The notes: a model not told the origin generated them from the sequence alone. Shown: positions 4,314-24,571, counted from the stretch's first letter. The stretch is DNA of 32,000 nucleotides from Candidatus Heimdallarchaeota archaeon (GCA_030614005.1 JAUWKS010000024.1:16166-48165); one strand, 5' to 3'. Made by a program: numbers and translations.

Positions 4314-4314
4314 T

Positions 4315-5741: not shown

Positions 5742-6449
5742 TTAAGCAAGACTTACTTTATTCTTAGCTAATAGAAGCAACCCATGCGTTTCCAACTCAA
5801 CTAAGCGTTCATCTAAAGTTTCTTCAGAAATATGGAGGATAATAGACAAATCTTTAATTTCCAATATTCCACCTCGAGATGCCAATGTTTGAACAATGCG
5901 TTGATCCATTCGTTGAGGTAGCAGCTCAAAAGAAATCGCGCGAATTTGGCGACGTATATTAGAATATGTTGCTTCTGCAATTGATTTTGCAACATTTATA
6001 TCTTGAAGTTCCACACCTAGGCTCTTCAACAATTCACTATATTCCGAAAGTTTACTTGTGGAATGTGGTTGTTTAGCTAACTCAGCGCATTTTTGGACTA
6101 TTTCATCAAGTTCTGGAAAATCATCAGGTGTTTGGATAGCTATTTTCGGAACATCAAATAAACCAATATCAAACATTTCAGGAGAAATCTGTACTTCAAC
6201 ACGTACAGCTCTTGCAATTGAATAATACCTACGAGGAGCGCCTTGACCAGCATCTTTGAAATCAGATTCAAGCAAACCGGCTGTTTCAAGTAATTGAAGA
6301 TGTCTGAAAATGGCTTGTTGACCTAACTCAAGTTGGTATGATAATTGAGAAAGGTACATTGGTTCTGATGCAAGCATAGAAAGTATTTTTCTCCTTGTAC
6401 CACTCTTTAGAGCCAAGAATATCTGATCAGTATCAGTCATTTTCATCAT
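5742..6449 (-). CDS. phr: Phr/HSR1-like heat-shock transcriptional repressor (ArsR-type wHTH) with an extra C-terminal wHTH-like segment; start uncertain (6440-6476)
   Basis: TRRKILSML..PMYLSQLS..LELGQQAIFRHLQLLETAGLLES...GAPRRYY resembles Pyrococcus Phr as recalled. Lies directly downstream of hsp20-cdc48. Confidence 0.75.
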   Translation of the reverse strand: MMKMTDTDQIFLALKSGTRRKILSMLASEPMYLSQLSYQLELGQQAIFRHLQLLETAGLLESDFKDAGQGAPRRYYSIARAVRVEVQISPEMFDIGLFDVPKIAIQTPDDFPELDEIVQKCAELAKQPHSTSKLSEYSELLKSLGVELQDINVAKSIAEATYSNIRRQIRAISFELLPQRMDQRIVQTLASRGGILEIKDLSIILHISEETLDERLVELETHGLLLLAKNKVSLA

Positions 6450-6513
6450 CTTTTTACCGTTTTTTCTTTTATTCAATATTTATGTCATTGTATATTTCTT
6501 CATTCTACTTACT

Positions 6514-8757: not shown

Positions 8758-8817
8758 ACTATTCCATCTCCATTAAATATGTAATATTTTGCTTACTGAT
8801 TTTAAAAAGTAAAAATC

Positions 8818-9402
8818 TTATTCGATCTTTACTTCAAATCCTTGCTCAGCCTTAGCATGTTCTTTTCTTTCCACAGTTAGTTCTAGGATTCCGTTGCGGT
8901 ATTTTGCAACAGCTGTTTTTGGATTAATCTTTACAGATAATTCTCGTTCGCAAGAGTAATTACGATCAGGACCTGTTGCACTGATAATAATCTTTGAGTC
9001 AGTAGTTTTAACATTAACTTCGTTTTTTGCTACACCAGGAAGTTCTGCAACAACTCGAACAACCTTATCTTCAATGAAGACATCTACAAGCGGTTCGCGA
9101 TCTTTTGTAGCGATAGGAGCTCCTTTTAGTGATGGTTTTACATTTCCAAATTCTTTGAAAACTGGTTTTCCGTCAGGACCTATACTCATATTCCATCCCC
9201 ATGTTAGTGGACCCATTTTTTTTCTAAATGCTTCAGGATCCGAAGCATCAAAATTTTCCATCATTTTGTTTACTTCTTCCATTAGTTGAGCAATGAATTC
9301 TTCATTAAAAACTCCACTATTTTCGAATAAATCAAAAGGCAACCATGGGAACATTTCTTTCCATTTCTCATATTCATCGTCTTTTTTTCTTCTCCAAGAC
9401 AT
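8818..9402 (-). CDS. hsp20: Archaeal small heat-shock protein Hsp20
   Basis: GPLTWGWNMSIGPDGKPVFKEFGNV, REPLVDV, AELPGV, AKYRNGILE. True start taken as MSWRRKK (ATG 9402) with GAGGT SD; the longer 9582 extension looks non-coding. Confidence 0.93.
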   Translation of the reverse strand: MSWRRKKDDEYEKWKEMFPWLPFDLFENSGVFNEEFIAQLMEEVNKMMENFDASDPEAFRKKMGPLTWGWNMSIGPDGKPVFKEFGNVKPSLKGAPIATKDREPLVDVFIEDKVVRVVAELPGVAKNEVNVKTTDSKIIISATGPDRNYSCERELSVKINPKTAVAKYRNGILELTVERKEHAKAEQGFEVKIE

Positions 9403-9454
9403 TATTAGTACCTCATTTTTCAGTAATTTGTTGAAATAGTTCTTTTTCTCACAG

Positions 9455-9475
9455 TTTAGAGAGTTACTCACTAAA
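9455..9475. promoter_or_regulatory. Candidate operator palindrome for the hsp20-cdc48-phr cluster
   Basis: TTTAGAGAGT-T-ACTCACTAAA, 9 of 10 arm pairs complementary. Lies between the TATA-like box (9506-9513) and the hsp20 start. Confidence 0.6.
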
Positions 9476-9505
9476 AAGTTAATAGTAAAACAACTATCTA
9501 AGCAA

Positions 9506-9513
9506 TATTTAAA
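9506..9513 (-). promoter_or_regulatory. Putative TATA box of hsp20
   Basis: TTTAAATA on the minus strand preceded by purine-rich GATAAGG (BRE-like), about 105 nt upstream of the ATG. Confidence 0.45.
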
Positions 9514-9611
9514 CCTTATCATATTGATTGAAAAATAACTAATCAAGTAAAAGCTAGAAAAATAAAGTAATGGAAAAAACAAGAGAAAAAGTTGTTAGAT
9601 AAGACTAACAA

Positions 9612-10424
9612 CTAATTAATATCAACTTTGACTCGTGATAGAATTTCATACATATCATCGACTTTCTTGTTGATACGCATCACGTTCTTCAGGACAATTG
9701 CTCTATTAGATCGGATAGGAGTTAGCACAAGTGTTCCAGAGCGGAAAATGAGTAATTCAATTAGATCAGGAAATTCTTTCACAATGGACATATCGGAAGC
9801 TGGAAATCGTTCAATGCCACCACCAAACCCTTTGTGATGTAATAATTCATTCCCTTCAACGATGTAATAGTTGAATAATGCACTTAGTAGCGTAAATACT
9901 AAGATAAAGAGTAACAATGCAGCTATTATATAGTAAACCCAATAGGAGAAATAGATACTCATCTCAATACCAGTTCCACTGCCACTTGTAAGAAAACCCG
10001 TGTAAGCATTTACAAGTAAGAGAACAGCAATCAAAGCAACAAACAAAATTGCAAGAATAATAGTTGTTGCACGATCAAAGTCGAATGCAATCAGAATAAG
10101 ATTTAGTGAAAAAATTACTAAGAATATAATACCAATTATATTCCCATACCCATTTCCTACACTTGCTTCGTCATAAGGCATAGCAATTGTTAAATCTAAA
10201 CTCATTTGAACAATCCCGCAAATAAGAGCAGTGATGAATGAAGGGATAAATAATATCATTGAGGAATAAGAGCGAATAATCATTCTATCTTTGTATTCCT
10301 TACCCGTATCATCTTCGGGATCAACTTGTTTATCTATATAAACTGTTTGAATTTTTACATGTTCATTGGAAGCATTAGTAGGTTTCATAGGAACTCCTTC
10401 ATTTTCAATTTCGGTTTCGGACAT
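9612..10424 (-). CDS. Hypothetical membrane protein (about 4 TM; possible bacterial-PH-like C-terminal domain)
   Basis: 270-aa ORF with acidic N-terminus, four hydrophobic stretches and a soluble C-terminus; GGTGA SD. Confidence 0.7.
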   Translation of the reverse strand: MSETEIENEGVPMKPTNASNEHVKIQTVYIDKQVDPEDDTGKEYKDRMIIRSYSSMILFIPSFITALICGIVQMSLDLTIAMPYDEASVGNGYGNIIGIIFLVIFSLNLILIAFDFDRATTIILAILFVALIAVLLLVNAYTGFLTSGSGTGIEMSIYFSYWVYYIIAALLLFILVFTLLSALFNYYIVEGNELLHHKGFGGGIERFPASDMSIVKEFPDLIELLIFRSGTLVLTPIRSNRAIVLKNVMRINKKVDDMYEILSRVKVDIN

Positions 10425-10448
10425 AGAATATCACCATACTGAAGAGTA

Positions 10449-10472
10449 AAGCTTTATGATAAAATAAAGCTT
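10449..10472. promoter_or_regulatory. Perfect 9-6-9 inverted repeat in a divergent promoter region
   Basis: AAGCTTTAT-GATAAA-ATAAAGCTT, 25 bp upstream of the 10424 start. Confidence 0.4.
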
Positions 10473-10586
10473 CTTATGGAAGAAACTAAGAGCAAAAAAA
10501 TTGTTTGTAGGCAAAAAGTCTAAAAAGATAGATATTTAACTTCAAACACCTAATAATTAGATAGGTAGAACCTTTTCAAAGGATCA

Positions 10587-11264
10587 ATGGAGATTTTAAT
10601 GTCACCACCCGATTACAAAAAATTATACGAAATCGTTTGTGATCTCTATTCTAACACAGAGCACTTCTATTATGGACAGTGGGATGAAACATTTTTTACC
10701 CTACGTGTTTTTGAGACTTGTAAAGATTTAATCAAAAAATCGAAAGCAAATGTTGAAAAAGAGGTAATTCTTACTGCAGCGATTTTCCATGATATTGGTA
10801 AAACTAAACTAAACACAGAAGAGAAAATCAAAAAAGAATGGGATGATCACCCGATTTATGGCGCTAAATTAACCCGTGAAATATTGTCTAAACAAGGTAA
10901 ATATGAAAATGGCTTTATAGAAAAAGTTGTTGACCTTGTAAAACATCACGATGACAGACCAGGCAAAGTAGATATGATTCGCTCAGATGAATTGAAAATC
11001 TTACAGGATGCAGATCTATTGGCAGATATGGGCATTGCTAGTTTTATCCGACCATTTCTCTATAGTGGAAAGAACAAACGAAGAACACTAGAAAATGTAA
11101 ATTATATCAAAACAGAGAGAAGAACAAACGGCGGAATATCGAAAGAAAACCTATATCGCTTAAATCTCAAATCATCAAAACGTTTTGCGAAAAAATTAAT
11201 GAAAGAAGCACAAAAATTAGACAATAAGATATTAAAAATGACACAATCAGAATTAGTGGAATAA
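10587..11264 (+). CDS. HD-domain metal-dependent phosphohydrolase
   Basis: AAIFHDIGKT, DHPIYGA, KHHD, LQDADLLADMG; the first His position reads FFTLRV. Confidence 0.85.
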   Translation: MEILMSPPDYKKLYEIVCDLYSNTEHFYYGQWDETFFTLRVFETCKDLIKKSKANVEKEVILTAAIFHDIGKTKLNTEEKIKKEWDDHPIYGAKLTREILSKQGKYENGFIEKVVDLVKHHDDRPGKVDMIRSDELKILQDADLLADMGIASFIRPFLYSGKNKRRTLENVNYIKTERRTNGGISKENLYRLNLKSSKRFAKKLMKEAQKLDNKILKMTQSELVE

Positions 11265-11398
11265 CATTATTGGCTTCTTTATAAATTTGCGCCGAAAACA
11301 TTTGAACTTCGCAGAGGAATCTATCAAATAAGTAAGTGTTCTATTTCTTTTTGAGCTTATCATTGAGAGTCTATGTAAGCGAAATTGCAAAGAAATTA

Positions 11399-12108
11399 TT
11401 AAGAACTCTTTATCAACCTAAAGAAAATGAAATGTGGATTAGCTAAAAGTTGTTCATATATTTCAGGGTTCTTTTCTTTTGCTTCTTTTATCGGCAGAGG
11501 TTCCAAAAGAATATCAACAAAGAATCCAGTCTTTCTGAATATTGCAAACATACTTGCCAATGTTCTATGATAATAACTAACAGGGTAAGTTTTTCCATTA
11601 ATAGTCCAAGATTCACTGTAAAGCTCCTTTTTGAAGTAATTAGGTTTATTGAACCAACGCCATCTGCATGAGGGTGATGTGTGGAAAAAACTACGTAACC
11701 ATTTTTCTTAAGAATACGACTGAATTCTGTGAATACAATCAACCAGTTACTGATATAATGAAGAACAAGTGAGGAAACAATAACATCAATAGAATTATCT
11801 GAAATGAAATCAAGAGGTTTGCTAAGATCAGCCACAAGAACCTGTGCTTTATCGCCTAATCGTTTTTTCGTACATTTGACCATTTCTTCACTGATGTCAC
11901 AAGCGATAACATTCGCACCTTGAGTCACTAACCACTCTGTTAAACTCCCAGAACCACAACCTGCATCTAACACTTTATTACCTTTAATATCTGGCATTAT
12001 TGCTTTTGTTGCAGGGCGCTCATACAAAGCATTATGCAAACTGGTTTCATTCTTTTGAGCATAAAGCTCTGCCATATCATCATACTGTTTTGATGGATTA
12101 GCATTCAT
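11399..12108 (-). pseudogene. Class I SAM-dependent methyltransferase with a 1-nt frameshift near 11662
   Basis: VLDAGCGSG, DISEEM, SSLVLHY, FSTHHP. Restoring one base (GAT GG -> GAT TGG) gives a natural continuation DWRWFNKPNYFKKELYSESW...YHRTLASMF...GFFVDILLEPLP...IKSS, stop at 11399 (236 aa). Confidence 0.8.
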
Positions 12109-12220
12109 AATTTTTATTATTACTTCAAGGATTAAAAACTGTTTATATTATAAATGCGATTTACTGAGTAATTAACAAAGGTTCATATTTAAGTTTAGAA
12201 AAATAGGATAGTGTTAGAGA

Positions 12221-13744
12221 GTGAGTGATATGAGTTACGTAGAAAAATCTGTTTACAGGTATTTGAAAAATATTGTTACCTCTGGTTTTAAAGCGCTGTT
12301 TACAAAGAAATTTTTGATTTATACAATCTTTTTCTTAGTCATTATTGCAACAACAACAATAACAGCCATAATCACAAAATCTCCTACGCCAACTATCTTT
12401 GGCGTTCCTTCTGCTGATATGATCAATTACCTTTTCTATTTTGAATTAGCATTTGCTTTATCGTATATTCTTGTCGGGTTTGCATTAGCTAAAACACCCA
12501 CATTTATGCACGTATTATTGGTAATTTTATTTGCAAGTGGAATTACAACAGGCTTTATTTTACTTAATAATATTGTAATTGCCTTGATTATTTGTTCTGT
12601 GTTATACGGTCTTTGGATGTTTATCACTGTAGTTTCATCATATTCTTTTAGCAAGAATTTACTTGGAAGTAGAGTAACTGGTAGTATTCTATTTATGGGT
12701 AAAAAAGAAGGAGGAAATTCATTATTCAGTGGGATACTTACTCCACTCATCATTGCCTGTATCGGATTGAACGGATATCTTCTATATCAAGGAATAATTT
12801 TAACTTCTTGGCTCTATATTTCTACAAGCGCAATTGGTATCTTAATGGGTGGATTTTTACTATTAGTTATTTGGCGATTAGCAAGAAAAGATGATGTTTT
12901 TTACACCATTCTACCATTCTTTTATCTAATGACGAACACTCGTGCAATACAATTAGTTATTCGACTTGTTAAAGGAGACACCAACTATGTTGCTTGGGTT
13001 AGTATTCTAATTTCAGCGTTTTTCTTGTTAAACACTATCTCCAAATATTATCGGAAAGTAAAGAAATTGGATGCAGATTTTCTACCAAGAGAAACAACAG
13101 AGAAAACAATCGATGTTACAACACCAGATGCTACCAATCAAAATGAAACTCAGGAAGAAGTGAAAGAGGAATTCTACATTAGTGACGTGTTTAAATTTAT
13201 TTCCGATAGGGGAGTAGTTATGATGATATTGGGATTTGCACTAGCTTATCATAATATGGTTCTACAAATAGTATTTAACACCGATAATATCGAACAAATT
13301 CTCTTTTTCGATCAAGTAGGGGTTGTTCAAATTGGTCATAGCATTACAATGATTTTTGCTGCTTTAGTTGTTATTTTCAGTGTTATACTCTATTCTTCAA
13401 GTAGTAAATTCAAAAGCTATACTTCACCACATATCTATCGCTTGAACTTTCTTCCACCATATGAAGATGTTGAAAAATTTGTCATTGATGCTAAAGCCGG
13501 TAGAATTAATTGGAAGATTTTTGCTCGAGATGCTACTGTTACTCTCGCAAAAAAGGGATTGAGCGCTTCTACAGAAATTGGTGTTTCAGTTAAAGAGCAA
13601 TCTATTGATCTTGCTAAAAAAGGAATGGACGTTGTAAAAACAAAGACTTATTCAGTTGTTGAGAGATTGCGAAACAAAATAAGTGGTGCAGTAGTAGAGG
13701 ACTCAGAAGAAATTATTGTTGAAGAAGCAGATGATGATTTCTAA
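12221..13744 (+). CDS. Hypothetical polytopic membrane protein
   Basis: 507-aa ORF with roughly a dozen hydrophobic segments, an acidic cytoplasmic loop and an acidic tail; no family recognised. Confidence 0.75.
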   Translation: MSDMSYVEKSVYRYLKNIVTSGFKALFTKKFLIYTIFFLVIIATTTITAIITKSPTPTIFGVPSADMINYLFYFELAFALSYILVGFALAKTPTFMHVLLVILFASGITTGFILLNNIVIALIICSVLYGLWMFITVVSSYSFSKNLLGSRVTGSILFMGKKEGGNSLFSGILTPLIIACIGLNGYLLYQGIILTSWLYISTSAIGILMGGFLLLVIWRLARKDDVFYTILPFFYLMTNTRAIQLVIRLVKGDTNYVAWVSILISAFFLLNTISKYYRKVKKLDADFLPRETTEKTIDVTTPDATNQNETQEEVKEEFYISDVFKFISDRGVVMMILGFALAYHNMVLQIVFNTDNIEQILFFDQVGVVQIGHSITMIFAALVVIFSVILYSSSSKFKSYTSPHIYRLNFLPPYEDVEKFVIDAKAGRINWKIFARDATVTLAKKGLSASTEIGVSVKEQSIDLAKKGMDVVKTKTYSVVERLRNKISGAVVEDSEEIIVEEADDDF

Positions 13745-13751
13745 CGCCTAA

Positions 13752-13778
13752 TTTGAGGTGTTTTAAGAGCACCTCAAA
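13752..13778 (+). terminator. Hairpin immediately after the stop of 12221..13744
   Basis: TTTGAGGTG-TTTTAAGAG-CACCTCAAA, 9-bp perfect stem. Confidence 0.45.
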
Positions 13779-13942
13779 AAAATTTCATTTTAGAACAACG
13801 AAATTTTGAAACTAGAGTAATTATAGTGAAATAAAAAAATAGTCGATTTTATGACTTGAATTTCCCAAATACATCATTTTATATATTGAAGACTTGACTT
13901 TTGTTTTATTGTTATTGTAAAAAAAAATAGGCTATTGAAATA

Positions 13943-14299
13943 ATGTCAATCAAAGATGAGCTAACTAATAGAAATCTCGAAGAAATTGTTCGTAATGCAA
14001 ACTCTCGTTCGGGAGCATGTATTTCTGTAGAAGATTGTATTCAAAAGTTGGATTTACAAACCGCAAAAGAAGCATTGGATGAATTCAAAACAATACTAAA
14101 AACTGAAACATTAGATATAGAAATATTACAAGATACAATAGCTTTATTATAGATCTTTCATGATTTAGGCAAAATCACTTTTCCAAGTCAAGATTATGGC
14201 ATTGCATTGTCAGTGCAAAATATTGCATTAATAAATCAGAAAGAGCTAGCTACGAAATTATTGCTCTTCCTTGAAAGAAATATTACGATTATCGAGTAA
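13943..14299 (+). pseudogene. Hypothetical 118-aa protein interrupted by an in-frame TAG at 14150-14152
   Basis: The 69-aa ORF continues in frame after TAG for 48 sense codons (IFHDLGKITFPSQDYG...ITIIE) to TAA at 14297-14299. Confidence 0.45.
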
Positions 14300-14422
14300 A
14301 AGCATTGTTAAGATTTGTTAATTGCAATTCAAATTAAAAATGAAAAAGAAAGAAAGAAAATTTATTAGAATATTTTATAAAGCAAGTAAAAGCTGCATAT
14401 AATTACTTTCGGAATTGATTGT

Positions 14423-14833
14423 ATGTCTTCAAATGTATCAATTAAAACGTTGGATGATTTCGGTTTCCTTTTTTGTTTAATAGGTGGAATTTTAACAGTT
14501 GTAATGGGATTAATGTCATTTATTATTGCAATTGCAGGCGAAAAAATCAGTTGGTTTTTAGGTGCTGGTTTTATTGGACTTGCAAATGTCATTGCTGGTT
14601 CAATAGTTTCGATGATTTTTGGTGCACTTGCTGTAGTAATAGGCTTGAAATTATTTTTAGCGAAAATCTACGAATTTATTACTAAATTTGATTTAATTAT
14701 TACTGCCATTGTAATGATAGTTATTGGCATCATTGTCTTTGGTATTAGTGGATTAATTATATTAGTTGCAGGCATACTCGTACTAGTTTATAGGTTACTA
14801 CCAGATGGAGCTGCCAATCCAAATGGCAGATAA
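14423..14833 (+). CDS. Small hypothetical membrane protein (about 4 TM)
   Basis: 136-aa Gly/Ile-rich hydrophobic ORF. Confidence 0.7.
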   Translation: MSSNVSIKTLDDFGFLFCLIGGILTVVMGLMSFIIAIAGEKISWFLGAGFIGLANVIAGSIVSMIFGALAVVIGLKLFLAKIYEFITKFDLIITAIVMIVIGIIVFGISGLIILVAGILVLVYRLLPDGAANPNGR

Positions 14834-14922
14834 CAACGACAAATCCTAATTGAGTAATATAAAAAAAATGTAAGAAACATAGGATTGTCAAAAAAAATTG
14901 ACCAATAAAGCAATGAAATAGG

Positions 14923-16734
14923 TTATTTTGAAAAAGCTTCACTCATTTCTGAAATCCATTCAGCAGATTGATGTTTAAAGTAGGTTTCATAAAGTTCAGA
15001 ATAAAGCCCTTTTTCGTTCATTAGACTATCGTGGTCTCCTTGTTCTACAAGCTCACCGTGATCAAGGACAAGAATCCTATCAGAGTTTTTGATAGTAGTT
15101 AAACGATGAGCAATAACAATTGATGTTCTATTAGAGAGGAGTTTTTCAAGAGCATCTTGAATCTTGGATTCAGTATATGCATCAACAGCAGCAGTTGCTT
15201 CATCTAAAATTAGTATTTTTGGATTGGTCAATAATGTTCGCGCGAAAGAAACCATCTGCCTTTGACCTGCAGATAGACCTTTACCACGCTCACCAAGAAT
15301 GGTTTCTAAACCATTGGGTAAAGCATCAATAAATTCTTGGGCAGAAACTATGCGTAGAACTTCCACAATTTCCTCTATTGTTGCATCAGGTTTACTATAG
15401 CGAATATTATCAAGGACCGTACCACTGAAAAGAAAAACATCCTGACTTACTAAACCAATTTGTGATCTAAGATTTTGGATATCATAAGCTCGTAAATCAA
15501 CACCATCAATTTTAATGGAGCCTTCATTGATATCATAAAACCTCATTAGTAATGACGCGATAGTTGTTTTGCCAGCCCCAGTGTGTCCAACGATTGCTAT
15601 AGACTCACCAGATTTTATATCTAGATTAATATTCTTTAATACAGGCGTGCCTTCTACGTAATATTGATGTACGTTCTCAAAAGTAATTTGACCGTCAATT
15701 TCTTTGACTATTGGATTCTCTGGATTTTTCACAGTTATTTCTGCGTCGATAATACTGAAGATTCGCTCCATAGCAGCAAAACCACTTTGTATAGTAGATA
15801 TTTGTGCTGCAACACGCATCAGTGGATAGAGAAATCTATTCAGCAGAAATATGAAGAGCAGTATGGTGGAGCTTGATGCAAGGTTTTCGAAAAACAACCA
15901 GCTACCAAATAGATTGATGCCAAATACTCCAAGAATACTTATTCCATCCATCACGGGCCAAATACCTGTTATTGCAAATGCTCTTTTTCTTGCAAGTTGA
16001 AATGTTGTATCATTTATTACTTCGAATTCTTCTTTCGATTTTTCTTCACGACCAAATGCTTTCGCAACTGATATTCCTGATACGCTTTCTTGGAATGAAG
16101 CATTTACTTCGCCAATTGCAGCACGCCATTTTCCACTTGTTTGTCTAATTACTCGTCTAAATAGAAGACCAACTAAGAAAACAATTGGACCCATACCCAA
16201 TGTTACTAGAGCCAATCGCCAATTAACGTAAAACATAACACCTAGAACTGAAAAAACTATCACAAAATTCGAGATGAAGTTAGCAACCACATTAATCATT
16301 TCGTTAAGTTCTTGCGAATCATTTGTCAATCTAGACATTATTTTACCAGTGGCTTGTCTATCAAAGAAGCTTAAATCATGTTCTTGCAAGCTTTGGTAAG
16401 TTTCCATCTGGATTCTTTTTATTATTTTTTGAGTAACAATGGTAACTATAATTGATTGCACCACTTGTAAACCCCATAACAGTATTGATAGACCAACATA
16501 GGTTATGGCATATGGTGCAACGACAGTCCACTCTTCACCCTGCTCCAGTCGATCATACGCCCATCGAATCATCATTGGAGGCAGAATGCTAACACCTGCA
16601 ATTATTAAAATACCAATAATAATGAGCAATAATTGTGATTTGTAAGCTGATAAATATTTCCAGAATCTTCTAAGAAGTTCTTTATCAGTATATACTCTAT
16701 CATAATCTTCTTTGTAGCTTCTAGATTCTGCCAA
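14923..16734 (-). CDS. ABC exporter fused permease/ATPase, subunit B of a heterodimer (MdlB/TM288-like)
   Basis: TMD plus GHTGAGKT, LSAGQRQ, ILILDEAT, AHRL. Start reassigned to TTG 16734 (GGAGG SD; 1 nt after the partner's stop). Confidence 0.92.
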   Translation of the reverse strand: MAESRSYKEDYDRVYTDKELLRRFWKYLSAYKSQLLLIIIGILIIAGVSILPPMMIRWAYDRLEQGEEWTVVAPYAITYVGLSILLWGLQVVQSIIVTIVTQKIIKRIQMETYQSLQEHDLSFFDRQATGKIMSRLTNDSQELNEMINVVANFISNFVIVFSVLGVMFYVNWRLALVTLGMGPIVFLVGLLFRRVIRQTSGKWRAAIGEVNASFQESVSGISVAKAFGREEKSKEEFEVINDTTFQLARKRAFAITGIWPVMDGISILGVFGINLFGSWLFFENLASSSTILLFIFLLNRFLYPLMRVAAQISTIQSGFAAMERIFSIIDAEITVKNPENPIVKEIDGQITFENVHQYYVEGTPVLKNINLDIKSGESIAIVGHTGAGKTTIASLLMRFYDINEGSIKIDGVDLRAYDIQNLRSQIGLVSQDVFLFSGTVLDNIRYSKPDATIEEIVEVLRIVSAQEFIDALPNGLETILGERGKGLSAGQRQMVSFARTLLTNPKILILDEATAAVDAYTESKIQDALEKLLSNRTSIVIAHRLTTIKNSDRILVLDHGELVEQGDHDSLMNEKGLYSELYETYFKHQSAEWISEMSEAFSK

Positions 16735-16735
16735 T

Positions 16736-18490
16736 TTATATGCCCTCCATTTTTTCCATCGGGGGTAACTCCGAAAATCGCTCAAATAACCGCCTATAGT
16801 CAATATTTCGTAGAATGAGCTCTGAGTGAGTTCCATTATCCATGAGAGAACCATTTCGCAAGACGATAATTATATCAGCATTTTTTATCGTTGCCAGTCT
16901 ATGAGTAATAATAAACGTGGTTCTATCCTTCAAAACATTTGCAATTGCAGTTTGAATTTTCCGTTCTGTTTCGGCATCAATCGCGCTACTTGCATCATCT
17001 AAAATTAGAATTGCAGGATTAACGAGGAGTGCTCTAGCGATGGCTACTCTCTGTTTTTGACCTCCAGAAAGTGTGACGCCACGCTCACCTACAATGGTAT
17101 CATACTTGTTTTCGAAAGCCATTATGAACTCATGAGCTTGAGCCATCGTTGCTGCGTGTTCAATTTCCTCTTGGGTTGCATGAGGGTTACCATAAGCAAT
17201 GTTGTCTCGAATAGTCTTACTAAATAGAAAAACTTCTTGCTCAATAACACCAATATTATCTCTGAGATTAGCAATATTTATGTCTCGAATATTTATATCA
17301 TCAACGTAGATAGTTCCACTAGTAGGATCATATAATCTCATTAAAAGCTTAATCAAAGTAGTTTTACCCGAACCGGGATTCCCAATAATTGCTACTGTTG
17401 CTCCACCAGCAACATTGAAATTGATGTTATTTAATGCATTGTTTCTGCTACTTTTGTCCGTATACGAGAAAGAAACATTTTCGAATTTAATGTCACCGAA
17501 TCGGTTTTGCCATTCTTGAGGAAACACTGGTTCTGGCACATATTCTTCTCGTTCTTTCATTTCGTAAATCCGTTTTGATGCAGCCATACCAATCTGAAAT
17601 TGAGTAATGGTCCATCCAACTTGCCATGTAGGCATCATTAAAGTCATCATCAACATAACAAAAGTAATAAGATCAGCTAAGACCATATTGCCAACTGATA
17701 CTTCATAAGCACCCCATAAGAAACTAACAGCAGTAATAATAATGGTAATAATAATTGCATAATATCTTGCGCCGATTATACCTCTTCGAGTGTTTATTTC
17801 TCTTAACTTTTCAGTTTCTTTATCAAACGCAGAAATTTCTTCTGCTTCCTTCACAAAGGCACGAGCAACACGTATACCTGTTATACTTTCTTGCAATCGA
17901 GAATTCATAAGACTGTTTTGCTCCACTTGTGCTTTTGAAATGGGTCTCAATTTTCGATTATATTCCCAAATGGCAAGTATATAAAATGGTAAAGCACCAG
18001 CAATTAGGAGGGTTAATTTTGGATTAATCCAAATCATCAAAGAAACTGAAAAAGTAATGGTGAAGAATGCTTCAAAGAGAAATTTTAATCCAGGGGAAAT
18101 AAAAATATTCATCTGCCGTGTGTCATAAGTCGCTCGAGCCATGACATCACCAACTTTTATCCTATCATGAAATTCTTGGCTCTTTTCTAACATATCATCA
18201 TAGAATTCTTCTGTAACATTTTTTGTTACTTTATGAGCAATCAATTCATTAGTATAACTTTGAACGTAATCACCCACAGTGCGTATCACTCCAGCTATTA
18301 CAATATAAAGTGATGTTAGAAGTATCGGCTGAAAGGCTCCATCAGGTTTAGCTAATTCAGCAAAAACATCACCAATTAATAATGGAGTAATGGAAACCGT
18401 GGCAATATACAATATTAAAAAAAACAGCATTACTAGAAACAGTAACTTTTCTTTAAAGATATGTTTTACAAACCATTTTTTGTAGCCCAT
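16736..18490 (-). CDS. ABC exporter fused permease/ATPase, subunit A of a heterodimer (MdlA/TM287-like, degenerate Walker B)
   Basis: TMD plus GNPGSGKT, LSGGQKQR, ILILDDAS (catalytic Glu replaced by Asp), THRL. Confidence 0.92.
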   Translation of the reverse strand: MGYKKWFVKHIFKEKLLFLVMLFFLILYIATVSITPLLIGDVFAELAKPDGAFQPILLTSLYIVIAGVIRTVGDYVQSYTNELIAHKVTKNVTEEFYDDMLEKSQEFHDRIKVGDVMARATYDTRQMNIFISPGLKFLFEAFFTITFSVSLMIWINPKLTLLIAGALPFYILAIWEYNRKLRPISKAQVEQNSLMNSRLQESITGIRVARAFVKEAEEISAFDKETEKLREINTRRGIIGARYYAIIITIIITAVSFLWGAYEVSVGNMVLADLITFVMLMMTLMMPTWQVGWTITQFQIGMAASKRIYEMKEREEYVPEPVFPQEWQNRFGDIKFENVSFSYTDKSSRNNALNNINFNVAGGATVAIIGNPGSGKTTLIKLLMRLYDPTSGTIYVDDINIRDINIANLRDNIGVIEQEVFLFSKTIRDNIAYGNPHATQEEIEHAATMAQAHEFIMAFENKYDTIVGERGVTLSGGQKQRVAIARALLVNPAILILDDASSAIDAETERKIQTAIANVLKDRTTFIITHRLATIKNADIIIVLRNGSLMDNGTHSELILRNIDYRRLFERFSELPPMEKMEGI

Positions 18491-18599: not shown

Positions 18600-19493
18600 T
18601 CACTTCATCAACCAATTTTTATCAAATTCGCCAATATAACAGAGACAAACTGATTTTGGGCCTGAAATAACACAACAAATATTTCCAGCTTCGTACAAAT
18701 GAATGTTTCTACTTTGAGTATTAACTTTTTGTATTTCATCAAAAATTTCCTGTGCTAAACCTTGATTTCTAACATGATAAAGAAATACTTCATTTATTTC
18801 AGTATGCTCAAGAATTTTTTTACCATATCTCGCCATCTGAGTAACAACATTCTTTTCCCCTTTAATAACACCAAGTGGAATTACAATGCCATCTTCAAAC
18901 GAAACAACAGGAGACATGTTAAAAGCTGAAGCCAATATTTTTTTGGCGCGACCAATGCGACCTTGTTTATATAAATAATTGAGATCCTTAAGTACAAAAA
19001 CATTGTTAACTCTTGGTTGGATGTAAGTTAATCTTTCAAGAATCTCTTTTTTTGTTTTTCCTTCTTTTGCCATTCTTGCTGCTTCTAATACTTGTATTCC
19101 TATACCCATCATAGCTTGTTTAGAATCAAAGATAGTAATATCCTTACCAGGAAAATGATTTTGAACAATCTTTTGAGCGCTTTCAACGGTGGCAGATAAT
19201 TTTGCTCCAACAAAAATAGCAATAACTGAATCTGAGATACTTAGAGCTTTTTCAAAGGCTTCAACAAAAAGACCTGGTGAAGGGACAGAAGAAGATGGAA
19301 GGTATTCTTTAGATATTTTTTCAAGTTTAATATGGAAATCTTCAGTTGAAATCTCACATTTATCTCTGCCCCAAAGCTTGTAGATTTCACTACCAAAAAT
19401 AATTCTAAGAGGAACAACAGAGATATCATATTTTTTGATTATTTCATCCGAAAGATCGCTTGATCCATCGGTAACAATAGCTACTTTAGACAT
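18600..19493 (-). CDS. degV: DegV/FakB family fatty-acid-binding protein
   Basis: AIVTDGSSDL, SSSVPSPG, LSATVESA, DSKQAMMGIG, LNYLYKQGRIG, C-terminal VISGPKSV. Confidence 0.88.
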   Translation of the reverse strand: MSKVAIVTDGSSDLSDEIIKKYDISVVPLRIIFGSEIYKLWGRDKCEISTEDFHIKLEKISKEYLPSSSVPSPGLFVEAFEKALSISDSVIAIFVGAKLSATVESAQKIVQNHFPGKDITIFDSKQAMMGIGIQVLEAARMAKEGKTKKEILERLTYIQPRVNNVFVLKDLNYLYKQGRIGRAKKILASAFNMSPVVSFEDGIVIPLGVIKGEKNVVTQMARYGKKILEHTEINEVFLYHVRNQGLAQEIFDEIQKVNTQSRNIHLYEAGNICCVISGPKSVCLCYIGEFDKNWLMK

Positions 19494-19736: not shown

Positions 19737-19770
19737 TGGTGGCTGAGGCGGAATTCGAATCCGCAATCAC
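19737..19770 (-). repeat. tRNA 3'-end repeat R1
   Basis: TGGTGGCTGAGGCGGAATTCGAATCCGCAATCAC; 2 mismatches to consensus TGGTGGCCGAGGCGGAATTCGAATCCGCGATCAC. Confidence 0.92.
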
Positions 19771-19831
19771 TAAAATATTTATACTTTATTTAATCCAATA
19801 ATCGCTCTAATATTTCTACAACACTAAATTC

Positions 19832-20356
19832 TTATGCTAGTTGTTTTAAAACTTTTAAATCGAGGGATTCCTTATAATTTAACAGAATATTTTTGACATC
19901 AGTAATATCCTTTTCACTACGCATACCTGGCAGAAGTTTAGCAGTAATTTGTAATTCGGGGGTTGTAAGCCAAATATCTAAATCATCTAAAATTGTAATC
20001 TTAACTTTATTTGACATTGTCACTCTATCCAGAGAAGAATAAACCCCTTTAAAATCTACACGATAAAAGTAAGTTTGGGTATCAAAAGCAGTAATATGAC
20101 TTTTCTCAAGTAATCCTTGTAGCATGTCTTCTTTAATTAATTCAATATTAGAAGAGTGAAGACAATTTGTTAAATTTTTTATTTGGTCAGTATTCTTGAA
20201 GGATAAATCAACAATTACATCCAAATCTTCTGTTGAGCGAACAGAACCATAATAACTAGCTGCAATGGCACCAACAATACAGTAATCAATGGAAGCTTCA
20301 TTCAAACAATGAACAGTGCGTCGTATTAGTCGTTCAAAGGCGCCTATTTCGCTCAC
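19832..20356 (-). CDS. Minimal nucleotidyltransferase (DUF6036/MNT-like); probably truncated by a premature TAA (full end at 19790)
   Basis: YCIVGAIAASYYGSVRSTEDLDVIV (GxxxxxxxG...DxD) and KD..D. After the TAA the frame continues EFSVVEILERLLD*. Confidence 0.75.
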   Translation of the reverse strand: MSEIGAFERLIRRTVHCLNEASIDYCIVGAIAASYYGSVRSTEDLDVIVDLSFKNTDQIKNLTNCLHSSNIELIKEDMLQGLLEKSHITAFDTQTYFYRVDFKGVYSSLDRVTMSNKVKITILDDLDIWLTTPELQITAKLLPGMRSEKDITDVKNILLNYKESLDLKVLKQLA

Positions 20357-20516
20357 GATCTCTCACCAAATTTTTCAAATAATCAATACGTTCTGCAGGA
20401 CTAAGGGTAGAAAAACGAGCTTTAAGTGAACTAAGAAAAATAGCTAAAGCTGTGTTGGATAAATCACAAGTGATTTTTACTCGTTGTTCCGGAGATAACT
20501 TGGATTCAGGTGGCAA
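20334..20516 (-). CDS. Small helical partner protein upstream of the nucleotidyltransferase (toxin-antitoxin-like pair)
   Basis: 60 aa, LSPEQRVKITCDLS...LKARF...SPAERI; overlaps the nucleotidyltransferase start by 23 nt. Confidence 0.6.
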   Translation of the reverse strand: MPPESKLSPEQRVKITCDLSNTALAIFLSSLKARFSTLSPAERIDYLKNLVRDRERNRRL

Positions 20517-20585
20517 AATAAGAAACGTCCATATAAAGAATATAACTAAAATGAATATAAAAATTTAGTAGGCATTAGGAGAAAA

Positions 20586-20619
20586 TGGTAGCCGAGGCGG
20601 AATTCGAATCCGCGATCAC
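20586..20619 (-). repeat. tRNA 3'-end repeat R2
   Basis: TGGTAGCCGAGGCGGAATTCGAATCCGCGATCAC; 1 mismatch to consensus. Confidence 0.92.
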
Positions 20620-20661
20620 AATAGAAAATTAATAAGATGAATTATCAAAAATCAATTTTTC

Positions 20662-21324
20662 TTAATCGATTTCATCTAGCGCAGGAGATTCCAAAACATA
20701 GTCATCGACTTCTATGATTTCAGTATCTGTAGTTGATTCATCAAATAACTGGTGGTATTCTTCATTATCTATATCATCAAGCGGGTTGGAAACTCTCAAT
20801 GGATCAAATAAGTTAATTTCAGAAATCGCTGCAAAGAATCCTATTACTATCATAAGTCCAAAAATGATTGTCACTGAATAGAACAGCACACCTAATTTGT
20901 AAATGAGTGAAAATTTGTTTAGGTGGTTAATGAAATTAGCAAATAGCATCATTGCGATAAAACCTAATATGCCGCCAATCATATGAAGACCCCTTGTAAC
21001 TCTCCAAATAATTATTTGAGGTTTATAGGAGAAATTTTGAGAACGTGTCATTTGACCAACAGTAGTTGAAAATAAACCTCCGAGAATAAAGCCGGTAAAG
21101 AAAAGCGGTTTTATTGCAGCGGAAAAACCCCAAACAACATCATATGTATAACTTGTTGTTTCATATGTATGAGTATCCAATATAACAGAATAACCCCAAA
21201 TCCAGATACTTTCACTTAGGTTAAGTAGTTCACCTGAAGCAACTGGTAGAAGAAATATCAATCCAATTGAGAGATTTAGAAAAGGATACAATATACTAGC
21301 TATTTTAGGAAATTCGAATTTCAT
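20662..21324 (-). CDS. Hypothetical membrane protein (about 4 TM, acidic C-terminal tail), cassette cargo
   Basis: 220-aa ORF filling the R2-R3 interval; stop 42 bp from R2. Confidence 0.7.
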   Translation of the reverse strand: MKFEFPKIASILYPFLNLSIGLIFLLPVASGELLNLSESIWIWGYSVILDTHTYETTSYTYDVVWGFSAAIKPLFFTGFILGGLFSTTVGQMTRSQNFSYKPQIIIWRVTRGLHMIGGILGFIAMMLFANFINHLNKFSLIYKLGVLFYSVTIIFGLMIVIGFFAAISEINLFDPLRVSNPLDDIDNEEYHQLFDESTTDTEIIEVDDYVLESPALDEID

Positions 21325-21432
21325 TTAATGACACTTTCTTTATACCAGTAATAACAGTTGATTTAATATTTTTTGGTAAAAAGAAATGATCAAACAATTG
21401 GATATAAATAATACAAGATGAATAAATTAAAA

Positions 21433-21466
21433 TGGTGGCCGAGGCGGAATTCGAATCCGCGAACAC
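21433..21466 (-). repeat. tRNA 3'-end repeat R3
   Basis: TGGTGGCCGAGGCGGAATTCGAATCCGCGAACAC; 1 mismatch to consensus. Confidence 0.92.
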
Positions 21467-21535
21467 CATCTCCAAAAATAAAAAACCAAGTACTACTGCT
21501 CCTTGTTTATAAATGGAGGTTTTTATACTTGCATC

Positions 21536-21553
21536 CACTTAAGCTGTTAAGTG
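21536..21553. promoter_or_regulatory. Candidate autoregulatory operator of the cassette ArsR gene
   Basis: CACTTAA-GCTG-TTAAGTG, perfect 7-4-7 inverted repeat, just downstream of TTTTTATA (21520-21527) and upstream of an AGGTGAGG SD. Confidence 0.5.
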
Positions 21554-21590
21554 CTTATTTGGTATTACACCACAAACACAAGGTGAGGAT

Positions 21591-21875
21591 ATGTCAGAAG
21601 AAACAATGGTTATTGAGCCAGGCAGAACGAGTATAGTAGCTAAAGCTCTTAAAGCCAAGAGTCGCGTGATGATACTCAAAATCTTATATGAAGAGGATAT
21701 GAACATCACTAGTTTAGCTGAAAGGATGGGTATGTCAATTGCTGCAGTCAGCGAACACATCAAGATTCTAGTGGAGGCAGGGCTGACTACCATTCACTAC
21801 AAATCAGGCATGCATGGTGGTGTAAAGAAGGTTTGCAGTACTAATACCAAGAATGTTGTGTTTAACATAAGGTAG
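21591..21875 (+). CDS. Stand-alone ArsR-family wHTH regulator, cassette cargo
   Basis: AKALKAKSRVMILKILYEEDMNITSLAERMGMSIAAVSEHIKILVEAGL...GMHGGVKKVC; strong SD. Confidence 0.85.
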   Translation: MSEETMVIEPGRTSIVAKALKAKSRVMILKILYEEDMNITSLAERMGMSIAAVSEHIKILVEAGLTTIHYKSGMHGGVKKVCSTNTKNVVFNIR

Positions 21876-22035
21876 TTTCCAACATTCGTTCTTTCATTTA
21901 ACTATACGGACTGCAGAGTCTATAATCCAAAACAACTATTTACTTGTTAGCCAAACGACTTTTTGATTGTTTGGAATGTTTTCTGGACGACTTTCATAGA
22001 CAACCAATAGAGAGAGAAAAGAAGGGAAAAAATAT

Positions 22036-22069
22036 TGGTGACCGGGCCGAAATTCGAATCCGCGATCAC
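22036..22069 (-). repeat. tRNA 3'-end repeat R4 (chimera of tRNA-Pro and repeat consensus)
   Basis: TGGTGACCGGGCCGAAATTCGAATCCGCGATCAC; tRNA-Pro-type bases at positions 10 and 12, repeat-type bases at 20, 28 and 33. Confidence 0.88.
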
Positions 22070-22134
22070 TAAGATATAAGTTTGTCATTTATGAAACAAT
22101 TAAGAGATCAGGGAATCTAACCACATAAATTTGA

Positions 22135-22770
22135 TTATCTAGTGAACCTTTTTTCGTTCTTCTTTTCATTATCTAAAATTTGTTGTACTAACTCAACAAT
22201 AAAAGTTGAAGGATTACTATCAAGAGATAAGAGGTCAACACCTAAATCACGGTGTTGTCTATTTAATTTCCTAGCATTTATTATCGCACCACCTCTCTTA
22301 TCAAAAAGTGATTCAAAATACTCTTTCGATTTGTTATAGTTTGGAATATAATTAGTGAGTTTTTGAAGCAAATTAGACGTAGAGATTGGTGTATAGTAAT
22401 ACGTGTAATGAAGTAAATACCACAACTCGAAACAAGGATTTGATAAACAGAGATTGATATTAGATAGCTCAGCTGATTGTCTTGCTGCGGCAAGATTTGC
22501 AGGAGTATTATTATCGGCATCAAAAACACACCAAACTTGATCTCCATAGTCGAAATCTATCCCATATCTTTGTATTTGACTTATAGCAAATTTCACCAAA
22601 TTTCGTGGATCCGTAACATTTGTATTAGGAGTTAATATCATTAAACCATTATTCCGTTTCCTGTATTTATTAAAATACAACCGTTCAGTTTTTTGACCTT
22701 CACAAATTATTAGGAACATTGCGACTTGTTCTCGAACGCTAGTTTTTCTTGTGGAATAGCCTTTTGCCAT
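22135..22770 (-). CDS. rloB: RloB-family TOPRIM-like protein (AbiLii-like)
   Basis: FLIICEGQKTERLYF, VWCVFDAD, LSNPCFELWYLLHY, NPST. Confidence 0.88.
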   Translation of the reverse strand: MAKGYSTRKTSVREQVAMFLIICEGQKTERLYFNKYRKRNNGLMILTPNTNVTDPRNLVKFAISQIQRYGIDFDYGDQVWCVFDADNNTPANLAAARQSAELSNINLCLSNPCFELWYLLHYTYYYTPISTSNLLQKLTNYIPNYNKSKEYFESLFDKRGGAIINARKLNRQHRDLGVDLLSLDSNPSTFIVELVQQILDNEKKNEKRFTR

Positions 22771-22783
22771 TTTAACCCATTCC

Positions 22784-24007
22784 TCACCCAGTTATGAATG
22801 GTAAAGCACCATATCTTCCAGCGAGATACCCTCGCTCAATGTCTTTATCTTTCCTTGGACTAAATTCAGTCAACGAAAAGAGGTCAGTATTTCCATTCTC
22901 GTTATTTTTTTCAGTAAACCATACTTGATCTCTTCTAAACAGAGTCTGATCTAACAAATTGGTATTATGAGTAGTAAATATTAGCTGTGCATTTGTATTA
23001 AGATTACTTTGATTATGAAAGAGTTCAATTAAAAAAACATTCAATTTATGATGTAATTTGATATCCAATTCATCAATAACGATAATACGATTATGCTCTA
23101 AGGCATCTAACCAAGGACCAATTAGTGAGAAGAATCTTTTTGTACCTTCAGATTCTTCATCAAAGTAATCAAATAAAACACCTTTATGGGAGGTTTTTAT
23201 ATTGATCTCTTCTAGTGGCAAAGCTTTTACTAAGCTAATATAACTTCTAATTTCGGGAGGTAAGGATTCAGGGATTTTATTCAATAACTTTGAGTTTATT
23301 TTAATATCGACTAAAGCTAAATCAGCTTCTGATAATATTTTCAAAACTCGTTCCTTATTCTTGATACTTTTTTGAATATAAGCTAAGGTCGGTCGTTCAG
23401 AACCAATAGGTTGATATGAACTAATGAATTGTAATTGATCTTTAAACCAATAAAAAACAGGAAAAACAACTTTATAATTCTCTTGAGTAGCTTTTGATAA
23501 ATAAAGAGTATTATCTAGGGTTCGTTCAGCGATGAAGCTCTGAATGTTTTTATCTCGAGTAAATCGAAAGACATCCTTTTTTCTTTCGAAGAGCAATGCT
23601 CGTCGGGTATTGCCATACCAGTAAAGGGTTTCTTCGAGAATTTCTGCCCCATTAAAAGCTACTGAGTAATCGTATTTAATATTATTTTGAATGAAGATGA
23701 TTTGAAATTTGGTAGGAATTTGCAAACAATTCTTATCTAACTTGAAAGGCTCATACTTTATTCCCTGACCTTTCTGATGATTGTGCGAATTGAGAACAAG
23801 TGCTTTGAAGAAATAAAAAGCCTTAATTACATTGCTTTTACCAGAAGCATTAGCACCATAAATCACCGCACTACGTAATAAATTATCTGTCTTGAAACCA
23901 TTCGTAATAAGATTCTTCTGTAAAGAGTTATCTTTAGTAGCAACCATACTAAAAACTACTTTATCTTTGATAGACCGAAAATTCTCAATACTAAATTCAA
24001 CCAACAA
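22784..24007 (-). CDS. AAA_21/ABC-type ATPase (RloA/AbiLi-like), partner of RloB
   Basis: MLVEFSIENFRSIKD, IYGANASGKSN, EESEGTKR, IVIDELD, QLIFTTHN, RRDQVWF, YLAGRYGA; 13 bp upstream of rloB. Confidence 0.88.
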   Translation of the reverse strand: MLVEFSIENFRSIKDKVVFSMVATKDNSLQKNLITNGFKTDNLLRSAVIYGANASGKSNVIKAFYFFKALVLNSHNHQKGQGIKYEPFKLDKNCLQIPTKFQIIFIQNNIKYDYSVAFNGAEILEETLYWYGNTRRALLFERKKDVFRFTRDKNIQSFIAERTLDNTLYLSKATQENYKVVFPVFYWFKDQLQFISSYQPIGSERPTLAYIQKSIKNKERVLKILSEADLALVDIKINSKLLNKIPESLPPEIRSYISLVKALPLEEINIKTSHKGVLFDYFDEESEGTKRFFSLIGPWLDALEHNRIIVIDELDIKLHHKLNVFLIELFHNQSNLNTNAQLIFTTHNTNLLDQTLFRRDQVWFTEKNNENGNTDLFSLTEFSPRKDKDIERGYLAGRYGALPFITG

Positions 24008-24030
24008 AGTAAAACACCGTTAAATGTCAT

Positions 24031-24053
24031 TTTTTGTGATTTTTTCACAAAAA
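24031..24053. promoter_or_regulatory. Perfect 9-5-9 inverted repeat upstream of the ATPase-RloB operon
   Basis: TTTTTGTGA-TTTTT-TCACAAAAA, 23 bp before the TTG start and downstream of a TTATTAAA box on the minus strand. Confidence 0.5.
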
Positions 24054-24157
24054 CCAAGCTTTAATAATTAGCTTGTTTTATTTAAAGATTATGGAACACA
24101 TGAAGAAAAATATGCAAAAAACAATAGGAAAAAAGAGAAAAGAAGGAAAAAAAGTAT

Positions 24158-24191
24158 TGGTGGCCGAGGCGGAATTCGAGTCAGTAATCAC
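24158..24191 (-). repeat. tRNA 3'-end repeat R5 (T-stem 5' strand decayed)
   Basis: TGGTGGCCGAGGCGGAATTCGAGTCAGTAATCAC; 4 mismatches to consensus, clustered at positions 23-29. Confidence 0.88.
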
Positions 24192-24463
24192 TAGATGTTT
24201 ATTCTTCCAAAACAAGATTAGGGATCAAGGGAAAATATTTGGTCTTTTTATAGATAATCTCAGACATTTAATTGTACAATAATTTGTTGGTAGGTAGTAA
24301 TGAAAAACAGCACTATTACTAAAGAAGAATGTATTGAAATGATGAGTTTAGAGTTTCTTTTATTGAAGGATAATGTTCTCTCTCTCCGGAGATGTAAGGG
24401 ATGTTACTGCAGAGAAGAAAGTAGTAATATTAGGATACAGAAAGAATTGACTGATAAGGGAAA

Positions 24464-24571
24464 TGGTGGCCGGGCCGGAATTTGAATCCGGGATCTCCTA
24501 CTAATTCGCAATTGGGATTTCCTCCCATATTGTCCCAAAGCAGGAATCATACCGTGCTAGACTACCCGGCC
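24464..24571 (-). tRNA. tRNA-Pro: tRNA-Pro(UGG) with encoded CCA and a 31-nt intron
   Basis: Cloverleaf: acceptor GGCCGGG/CCCGGCC, anticodon stem CCTGC/GTAGG with loop TT-TGG-G|A, T-arm CCGGA-TTCAAAT-TCCGG, 3' ACCA; 77 nt mature. Confidence 0.93.
24503..24533 (-). other. tRNA intron at 37/38 with bulge-helix-bulge motif
   Basis: ACAATATGGGAGGAAATCCCAATTGCGAATT. Central helix TTTG/CGAA, 3-nt bulges GG|A and TT|A, outer helix CAAT/ATTG + TGGGA/TCCCA. Confidence 0.9.

Follow-up and report, generated by a model that had tools for sequence, protein, structure and literature searches.

Displaced tRNA-Pro 3' ends bound small gene units in a Heimdall-group archaeon, at a locus that may have grown by serial site-specific integration

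How does a chromosome come to hold a row of small, unrelated genes, each set apart from the next by a copy of the end of one tRNA gene? The question is raised by a 32,000-nucleotide stretch of DNA (G000:C8:16166-48165; hereafter the window, with positions counted from its first letter) from a Heimdall-group (Asgard) archaeon. Its genome, G000, is a metagenome-assembled genome (MAG) of 3.62 Mb in 126 contigs, with 33.5% G+C and 90% completeness. Between positions 19737 and 24571 of the window, five co-oriented repeats follow a tRNA-Pro(UGG) gene and bound units that carry an AbiL-type pair, an ArsR-type regulator, a membrane protein and a putative nucleotidyltransferase (NTase). An earlier, sequence-only reading had seen in them an integron-like array, filled by repeated capture of small cassettes. 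We think it somewhat probable that the locus is an additive tRNA-Pro(UGG) island produced by serial site-specific integration, with gain and loss of small units in trans; within that account, the capture of integrase-less units in trans is plausible.

The array starts with an intact tRNA-Pro(UGG) gene on the minus strand (24464..24571; C8 c[40629,40736]), which encodes its CCA end, is accepted by intron-aware ARAGORN and is 95% identical to its orthologue in G010, the genome of the closest relative. This is the anchor that the sequence-only reading had named, although the gene proves to contain a 31-nt intron, because of which neither default ARAGORN nor Rfam at gathering thresholds calls any tRNA in the window; with ARAGORN set to allow introns, they are present in many G000 tRNA genes. 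Five 34-bp repeats on the same strand run outward from the anchor: R1 (24158..24191), R2 (22036..22069), R3 (21433..21466), R4 (20586..20619) and R5 (19737..19770). Counted from the distal end to the tRNA, the start-to-start distances are 849, 847, 603, 2122 and 306 bp, exactly as first described, and each copy has 1-4 mismatches to the consensus. Shuffling the window 100 times gave 0 matches, and in the rest of the 3.62-Mb genome the repeat was found nowhere, save for one weak look-alike on contig C55 that is part of another array. Followed in the direction of the tRNA, each copy comprises variable loop, T-arm, acceptor 3' strand, discriminator and CCA, and is succeeded by a T-rich tract; these co-oriented, displaced tRNA 3' ends bound the inserted blocks.

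These repeats are displaced 3' ends, as had been proposed from the sequence, with the refinement that they are not copies of the present end of the gene, from which they differ at 5 positions, including a compensated T-stem pair. The present tRNA-Pro of G000 has the T-stem CCGGA/TCCGG and the acceptor CCCGGCC, whereas R3, R4 and R5 have GCGGA/TCCGC and CTCGGCC; but for one acceptor base, this is the type of tRNA-Pro found in other species of the genus. R5, beyond which no further copy can be recognised, carries an acceptor mismatch and could no longer complete a tRNA. R2 is a hybrid, in which a genus-type GCGGA left half is joined to a right half (T-stem 3' strand and acceptor) of G000's own tRNA type, and the single repeat of G010 is likewise a hybrid, with a GCGGA left half and a right half made of T(T/C)CGG and the host acceptor. 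The right half of R1, from T-loop to CCA, is of the repeat type, and its left half (T-stem 5' strand) has diverged. Mismatched T-stems of this kind would arise from reciprocal exchange in or near the T-loop, as expected of an attR site, and the left/right hybrids point to strand exchange there. The T-arm itself, a near-palindrome of 5-bp stems around a 7-nt loop, would have the usual form of a tyrosine-recombinase core site.

The block of identity begins at the T-stem in this array and in two others of the same genome, one at tRNA-Ala and one made of tRNA-Val-like fragments, in agreement with the T-loop class of tRNA integration sites, which Williams reportedly set out in 2002; such a block is expected where an integrase targets the T-loop. 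Homologous recombination alone, with the tRNA-derived repeats serving as patches of homology after uptake of DNA from relatives, is a very unlikely source of this pattern. Repeats of 27-34 bp with several mismatches are a poor substrate for it, and an identity block that always starts at the T-stem, together with hybrids that switch type at the T-loop in two genomes, bears the hallmarks of T-loop-directed site-specific exchange.

Orthologous tRNA-Pro arrays were found in five other species, among comparison genomes (G005, G006, G008, G009, G010 and others) that are MAGs of 64-92% completeness, in which absences carry little weight. Gene content varies between conserved flanks in G000, G006, G008, G009, G010 and one strain variant, and it does so in steps bounded by repeats; fixed content across relatives, which would have told against the sequence-only reading, is not what the locus has. 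From the distal flank inward, G010 has ABC transporters, a decayed R5-like copy, the NTase unit, one repeat, 240 bp, a 12.8-kb island and tRNA-Pro. Its NTase unit is orthologous to that of G000 and likewise lies between repeats; it now carries in-frame stops. It is the only unit between the ABC flank and the one repeat; in G000 the membrane-protein, ArsR and AbiL units exactly fill the space from R4 to R1. G000 also has a DegV gene between the ABC flank and R5, with the junction right at the DegV stop codon, and this gene is missing there from G010 and G008. The order in G006 is tRNA-Pro, a TldD/PmbA pair, a repeat, DegV and a second repeat; that in G008 is tRNA-Pro, a 296-aa membrane protein, a CBS protein, a repeat, a 203-aa open reading frame (ORF) and the ABC transporters. 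The CBS unit recurs in G005, in G008 and on one metagenome contig, at differing positions of the array. In G009, whose tRNA-Pro has a clearly different, standard T-arm (GGCGG/CCGTC), the AbiL unit stands directly behind the tRNA gene, with an ATPase 78% identical in amino-acid sequence to that of G000, and ends at a repeat that matches the 3' end of the G009 tRNA itself with 3 mismatches. R2 aligns with this displaced repeat, and the two AbiL units are homologous over a stretch that starts 34 bp past R2 and stops 62 bp before R1.

The G010 island (L029; G010:C39, reverse 2459-15269), which lies between tRNA-Pro and a displaced copy and holds no integrase, encodes an LVIVD-repeat protein, a subtilase with TSP3 repeats, an ABC ATPase with an FtsX permease and a caspase-like protein.

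Strains vary at the repeats as well. Contigs from two studies join position 24167 to 24474, so that the 306-bp unit is missing and the tRNA end is identical to that of G010, and both forms, with and without the unit, occur in one public run. This comparison used assembled contigs, and regions without cover in those runs were given no weight. Contigs assembled from other studies' runs also bridge R5, R4, R3 and R2 in the order seen in G000, which argues that the array is not a collapse artefact, the misassembly that would have undone the sequence-only reading. There is next to no chance that the bin chained or collapsed strains on the repeat: the 126-contig MAG and the co-occurring variants at the R1/tRNA junction would be compatible with such an error, but the bridging contigs and the orthologous arrays in five other species contradict it. 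Homologous recombination has some support. The strain joint falls in the acceptor segment and not in the T-loop, both halves of the sequence that bounds the AbiL unit in G009 are of the host's own type, the first two tRNA-Ala copies of G000 share at least 80 bp in all, and no integrase was found.

What lies between the repeats is compact. Each unit has its own leader, with genes starting 69-243 bp past a repeat, and in the co-oriented units the starts fall 69-150 bp behind one repeat and the stops 42-65 bp ahead of the next, distances that agree with those claimed earlier; the G+C of the units (0.305-0.373, against 0.337 for the window) does not set them apart. The 306-bp unit between R1 and the tRNA has a gene-less filling of 272 bp (24192..24463). 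Between R1 and R2 lies an AbiL pair on the minus strand, comprising an AbiLi-type AAA_21/AAA_15 ATPase of 407 aa (22784..24007; Pfam AAA_21 1.9e-32, PADLOC AbiLi 1.2e-95) and its partner, an AbiLii/RloB-like protein of 211 aa (22135..22770; Pfam RloB 1.1e-38, PADLOC AbiLii 1.2e-27). The unit between R2 and R3 carries an ArsR/HTH_5 winged-helix regulator of 94 aa on the plus strand (21591..21875; Pfam HTH_5 1.1e-10), the sole cargo gene oriented opposite to the tRNA. Between R3 and R4 is a multi-pass membrane protein of 220 aa (20662..21324, minus strand) with no Pfam match; it is a near-orphan, and a search of 82 class genomes gave only one other match, to a pseudogenised copy from the sister genus. 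Two overlapping minus-strand ORFs fill the space from R4 to R5 (19832..20516), one of 60 aa (20334-20516) and one of 174 aa (19832-20356). The 174-aa protein has a G-S...D-x-D nucleotidyltransferase motif, and AbiEii/DUF2204 clusters were matched by Atlas features alone (0.96); neither it nor the 60-aa and 220-aa proteins found a match in Pfam, PADLOC or PDB sequence searches. The cargo named by the sequence-only reading thus stands for the membrane protein, the ArsR regulator and the RloB-ATPase pair, which is the AbiL pair, while its nucleotidyltransferase call rests on the motif and the Atlas features. To judge from their sequences, the 60-aa and 174-aa proteins probably form a toxin-antitoxin-like module. 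Beyond R5, the DegV-family gene (18600..19493, minus strand; Pfam DegV) probably makes up a sixth unit. It is followed by a conserved pair of ABC transporters, whose first gene (16736..18490, minus strand) is the distal flank that the islands of G000, G010 and G008 have in common.

Within the 306-bp unit, a 61-aa ORF (24300-24485, plus strand) overlaps the tRNA 3' end; G010 keeps the first 14 codons, after which an early stop follows, and the ORF is probably no gene. In one contig of public run X8, position 19994 is followed by 18 foreign letters and then by position 19047, a rearrangement that touches the DegV and NTase genes and may stem from another strain or locus.

G000 holds further arrays of the same kind. 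On contig C110 (34604-58449; L007, L008), a tRNA-Ala(UGC) gene is followed by four more copies of its last 30 nt, which bound units of 16.4, 3.6, 2.7 (a UvrD helicase) and 1.0 kb (a DUF5615/DUF433 pair), with a VapBC pair after the last copy. The 16.4-kb unit is a defence-like island with an MmeI-type enzyme, a DEAD helicase, NERD, a LAGLIDADG-HTH protein and a metallophosphoesterase, and no integrase, and the first two copies have about 50 bp of further identity past the tRNA end. On contig C55 (7053-8907; L040 4054-5908), three tRNA-Val-like 3' fragments of two T-arm types, 851 and 976 bp apart, bound two VapBC pairs, one AbrB-PIN and one RHH-PIN; no intact tRNA was found adjoining these fragments. 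Multiple tRNA-Ala-type copies occur in G010 and G008 too. The DUF5615/DUF433 toxin-antitoxin unit stands third behind tRNA-Ala(UGC) in G000 and first behind tRNA-Ala(GGC) in G008, and the homology between the two begins exactly at the repeat. An exact tRNA-Ala-type match in G044, a genome of another family, was set aside as the tRNA-Ala(GGC) gene of that genome and no array element.

Which enzyme could have worked at these sites? The window is without a recombinase, as the sequence-only reading had noted for the array, and no tyrosine recombinase was found anywhere on contig C8. The sole PF00589 match in G000 is a gene on contig C58 that is cut by the contig end; it is 62% identical to a protein of 350-360 aa that is single-copy in most genomes of the genus, and we therefore take it to be XerA-like. 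Neither PF16795 (SSV-type) nor the serine recombinase families PF00239 and PF07508 had a match in G000. No recombinase was found at the arrays of G005, G006, G008, G009 and G010, where MAG incompleteness limits the search, and queries (tblastn) with seven integrases of the genus matched none of the array loci. The split int(N) and int(C) halves left by SSV-type integration were not seen either: there is no PF16795 match in G000, and the ORFs that overlap R5 and R3 match no family. Pattern scans of metagenomes and genomes returned mostly short contigs with the tRNA itself and no integrase-bearing element. Two ORFs of integrase size beside repeats in G005 and G008 (286 and 296 aa) were rejected as membrane proteins. 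Contig C58 ends inside the tyrosine recombinase gene (C58:19780-20673); a 'tRNA-His' with a 1057-nt intron that ARAGORN calls on the same contig (11178-12328) is very likely a false call.

Under serial integration, a circular DNA with a copy of the tRNA-Pro 3' end would recombine repeatedly with the T-arm of the chromosomal gene; each event would restore the tRNA and displace the earlier 3' end outward, leaving one 34-bp fragment per event. The present remainder would be compact units of 0.3-2.1 kb, gained and lost whole at the repeats. Because no unit encodes a recombinase, the enzyme would be supplied from elsewhere, for example by an unbinned virus or plasmid or as a host enzyme. The anatomy, the differences at the repeats between species and strains, and the hybrid repeats are observations; we infer a tyrosine recombinase as the agent, its action in trans on the small units, and also the order in which the events took place. 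That the units travel as such is suggested by their compactness, by the lack of integrase or other gene debris in them, and by the presence of units with the same ends at other positions, behind other tRNA genes and with another host's tRNA tail.

A different history could leave much of the same picture. The units may be the remains of larger, integrase-bearing viruses or plasmids that integrated in tandem and then suffered deletions between repeats, with no capture of small cassettes at all and with toxin-antitoxin and defence genes kept because they would be costly to lose. The 272-bp filling of the 306-bp unit speaks for such decay, matching the distal 240 bp of the 12.8-kb G010 island, as do the 16.4-kb defence island that opens the tRNA-Ala array, the in-frame stops of the NTase unit in G010 and a cargo enriched in toxin-antitoxin and Abi genes, the expected survivors. 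Integrase-less integrated elements of archaea have moreover been ascribed to integrase loss (PMC8371274). Yet the gene-bearing units of G000 are packed like ordinary genome, with leaders of 69-160 bp, tails of 42-65 bp and no pseudogene debris or integrase fragments; the same small units, cut just as precisely at the repeats, turn up in further species, where they hold different array positions or stand behind a different tRNA gene; and even the 12.8- and 16.4-kb islands are without an integrase. We regard decay of this kind as a serious but unlikely explanation for the array as a whole.

Several observations weigh against serial integration with gain and loss in trans, beyond the incompleteness of the comparison MAGs. 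Some 240 bp of what fills the 306-bp unit have their homologue at the far end of the 12.8-kb island behind the same tRNA in G010, which means that decay, too, makes small units; the repeated capture of small cassettes proposed by the sequence-only reading has the repeat-bounded variation on its side and this unit, which looks like an island end, against it. DegV has no distal repeat in G000, which the decay account would also explain. The AbiL proteins of G000 and G009 are 66-78% identical and those of neighbouring core genes 57-78% (amino acid), so that vertical descent with gene conversion may also account for the unit. The strain joint from 24167 to 24474 lies in the acceptor strand, outside the T-loop, and thus is not a simple excision product of the present arrangement. 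All units have in common the 34-bp core and the T-rich tract and nothing further, and an integrase that depends on arm sites could not serve them all. No cognate integrase for the array was found in G000 or its relatives, nor any free or circular unit in assembled sequence, no viral contig bearing the Pro, Ala or Val-type site in scans of IMG/VR, and no tRNA-like site near any of the seven integrase loci of the genus; the integrase acting in trans that the sequence-only reading called for has thus not come to light in these searches.

An exchange of cassettes within the Heimdall group is a doubtful extension of serial integration. In it, minimal modules, each of one toxin-antitoxin pair, Abi system or surface protein and a 27-34-bp T-arm/acceptor attachment (att) site, would pass between species and be inserted at several tRNA genes by a core-site-only tyrosine recombinase acting in trans, possibly the conserved XerA-like enzyme; with every excision, the site would be taken anew from the tRNA of the current host. 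Still more remote is a dedicated, integron-like platform, in which the host's XerA-like enzyme would recruit att-only cassettes to T-arms in the way that Xer recombinases serve IMEX (integrative mobile elements exploiting Xer) and pdif modules; we hold this to be highly improbable. In its favour, the XerA-like gene is the only tyrosine recombinase found in several array-bearing genomes of the genus, a single genome has arrays at no fewer than three tRNA loci, and a core of 27-34 bp is all that the units need. Against it, no observation connects XerA with T-arm sites; intI, attC-type sites and a shared promoter are absent, every unit comes with its own leader, and one of the cargo genes is inverted. 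MAG incompleteness can, besides, hide mobile integrases.

The integron likeness urged by the sequence-only reading is one of function, with no evidence for common descent. Integron cassettes and pdif modules form arrays of small, mostly single-function units with short sites and no recombinase of their own, and toxin-antitoxin cassettes are common among them. No intI gene with its attI site and cassette promoter (Pc) adjoins the G000 array. Where attC sites are imperfect inverted repeats (R''-L''/L'-R') at the 3' ends of promoterless cassettes, the repeats here consist of T-arm, acceptor and CCA and stand 5' of genes with leaders of 69-243 bp, one of the genes being inverted; nor is there a XerC/D-type dif site as in pdif modules, the site being the tRNA T-arm and acceptor strand. 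Comparable in their boundaries are the cis-mobilizable elements (CIMEs) that accrete at the att sites of streptococcal integrative and conjugative elements (ICEs), which are said to be att-bounded, without recombination genes and movable by the integrase of a related element: by Pfam and PADLOC the units of G000 contain no recombination or transfer genes and are bounded by repeats in the same manner. For CIMEs a helper ICE and its integrase are reportedly known and mobilisation is experimental, whereas mobility in G000 is suggested by comparisons alone. Tandem islands have reportedly been mapped by their displaced tRNA fragments with Islander.

The flexible islands at tRNA and tmRNA genes of Alteromonas share with this locus the tRNA hotspot, the strain-variable cassettes marked by tRNA repeats and the conserved flanks (PMC4898812). 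They differ in that here the host is an Asgard archaeon, the units are of 0.3-2.1 kb with one or two genes, toxin-antitoxin and Abi genes dominate the cargo, and an integrase was detected at none of the arrays in six genomes. In the tycheposon islands of Prochlorococcus, elements also stack at one tRNA, partial tRNAs separate them and newer arrivals push older ones outward, and the islands hold degenerate remnants and further partial tRNAs (10.1101/2020.12.28.424599). Tycheposons, however, carry their own tyrosine recombinase and replication genes, fragments of which are seen in the islands; none such were found in the G000 array. Among archaea, tandem integration and integrase-less integrated elements are on record, with integrases of the SSV and pNOB8 types (PMC8371274), and tRNA fragments act as attR (PMC9897764). 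The described tandem elements resemble ours in their integration into tRNA 3' parts and their direct repeats of 40-odd bp, but they are viruses and plasmids of 9-23 kb, whereas the G000 units measure 0.3-2.1 kb and show no int(N) or int(C) halves. Papers on Asgard mobile elements describe integration at tRNA genes and a 2.6-kb integrase-less mini-element, and no such arrays (PMC8813620, PMC11529989). Insertion by a casposon or Cas1 was considered and rejected: no convincing terminal inverted repeats were found at unit ends, and the repeats are of 34 bp with a reciprocal-hybrid structure and not a duplication of 14-15 bp. Thus additive, tRNA-anchored arrays are known from Alteromonas and Prochlorococcus, and what is particular to this locus is its Asgard host, its tiny units, its defence and toxin-antitoxin cargo, the presence of several arrays and the lack of a visible integrase.

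Gene uptake by Asgard archaea is a matter of debate, and the description of their mobile elements is at an early stage (PMC8813620, PMC11529989). In one Heimdall genus at least, tRNA tails serve as hotspots where modules of one or two genes, mostly of defence and toxin-antitoxin type, come and go, and these hotspots offer sites testable by PCR and 34-bp substrates with which a recombinase could be sought. Default tRNA scans miss anchors with introns, so that such arrays can pass for orphan repeats. Cassette exchange, if true, would be an archaeal functional analogue of integron cassettes or pdif modules, by which genes could flow into the lineage that stands nearest to eukaryotes.

Two smaller observations concern the tRNA genes themselves. 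The tRNA-Pro (window 24464-24497), tRNA-Ala and tRNA-Gly(CCC) genes of G000 (C34, C99, C110) have a T-arm of the form GGA-TTCAAAT-TCC, with A:U where nearly all tRNAs carry G53:C61; the form also occurs in tRNA-Val(GAC) of G008, the tRNA-Pro of G009 is of standard form, and the arrays observed stand at Pro, Ala and one Val-type site. On contig C7 (19117-25179; L010), the last 30 nt of tRNA-Arg(TCG) recur exactly, in inverted orientation and 6 kb from the gene, which could mark an inversion between att copies.

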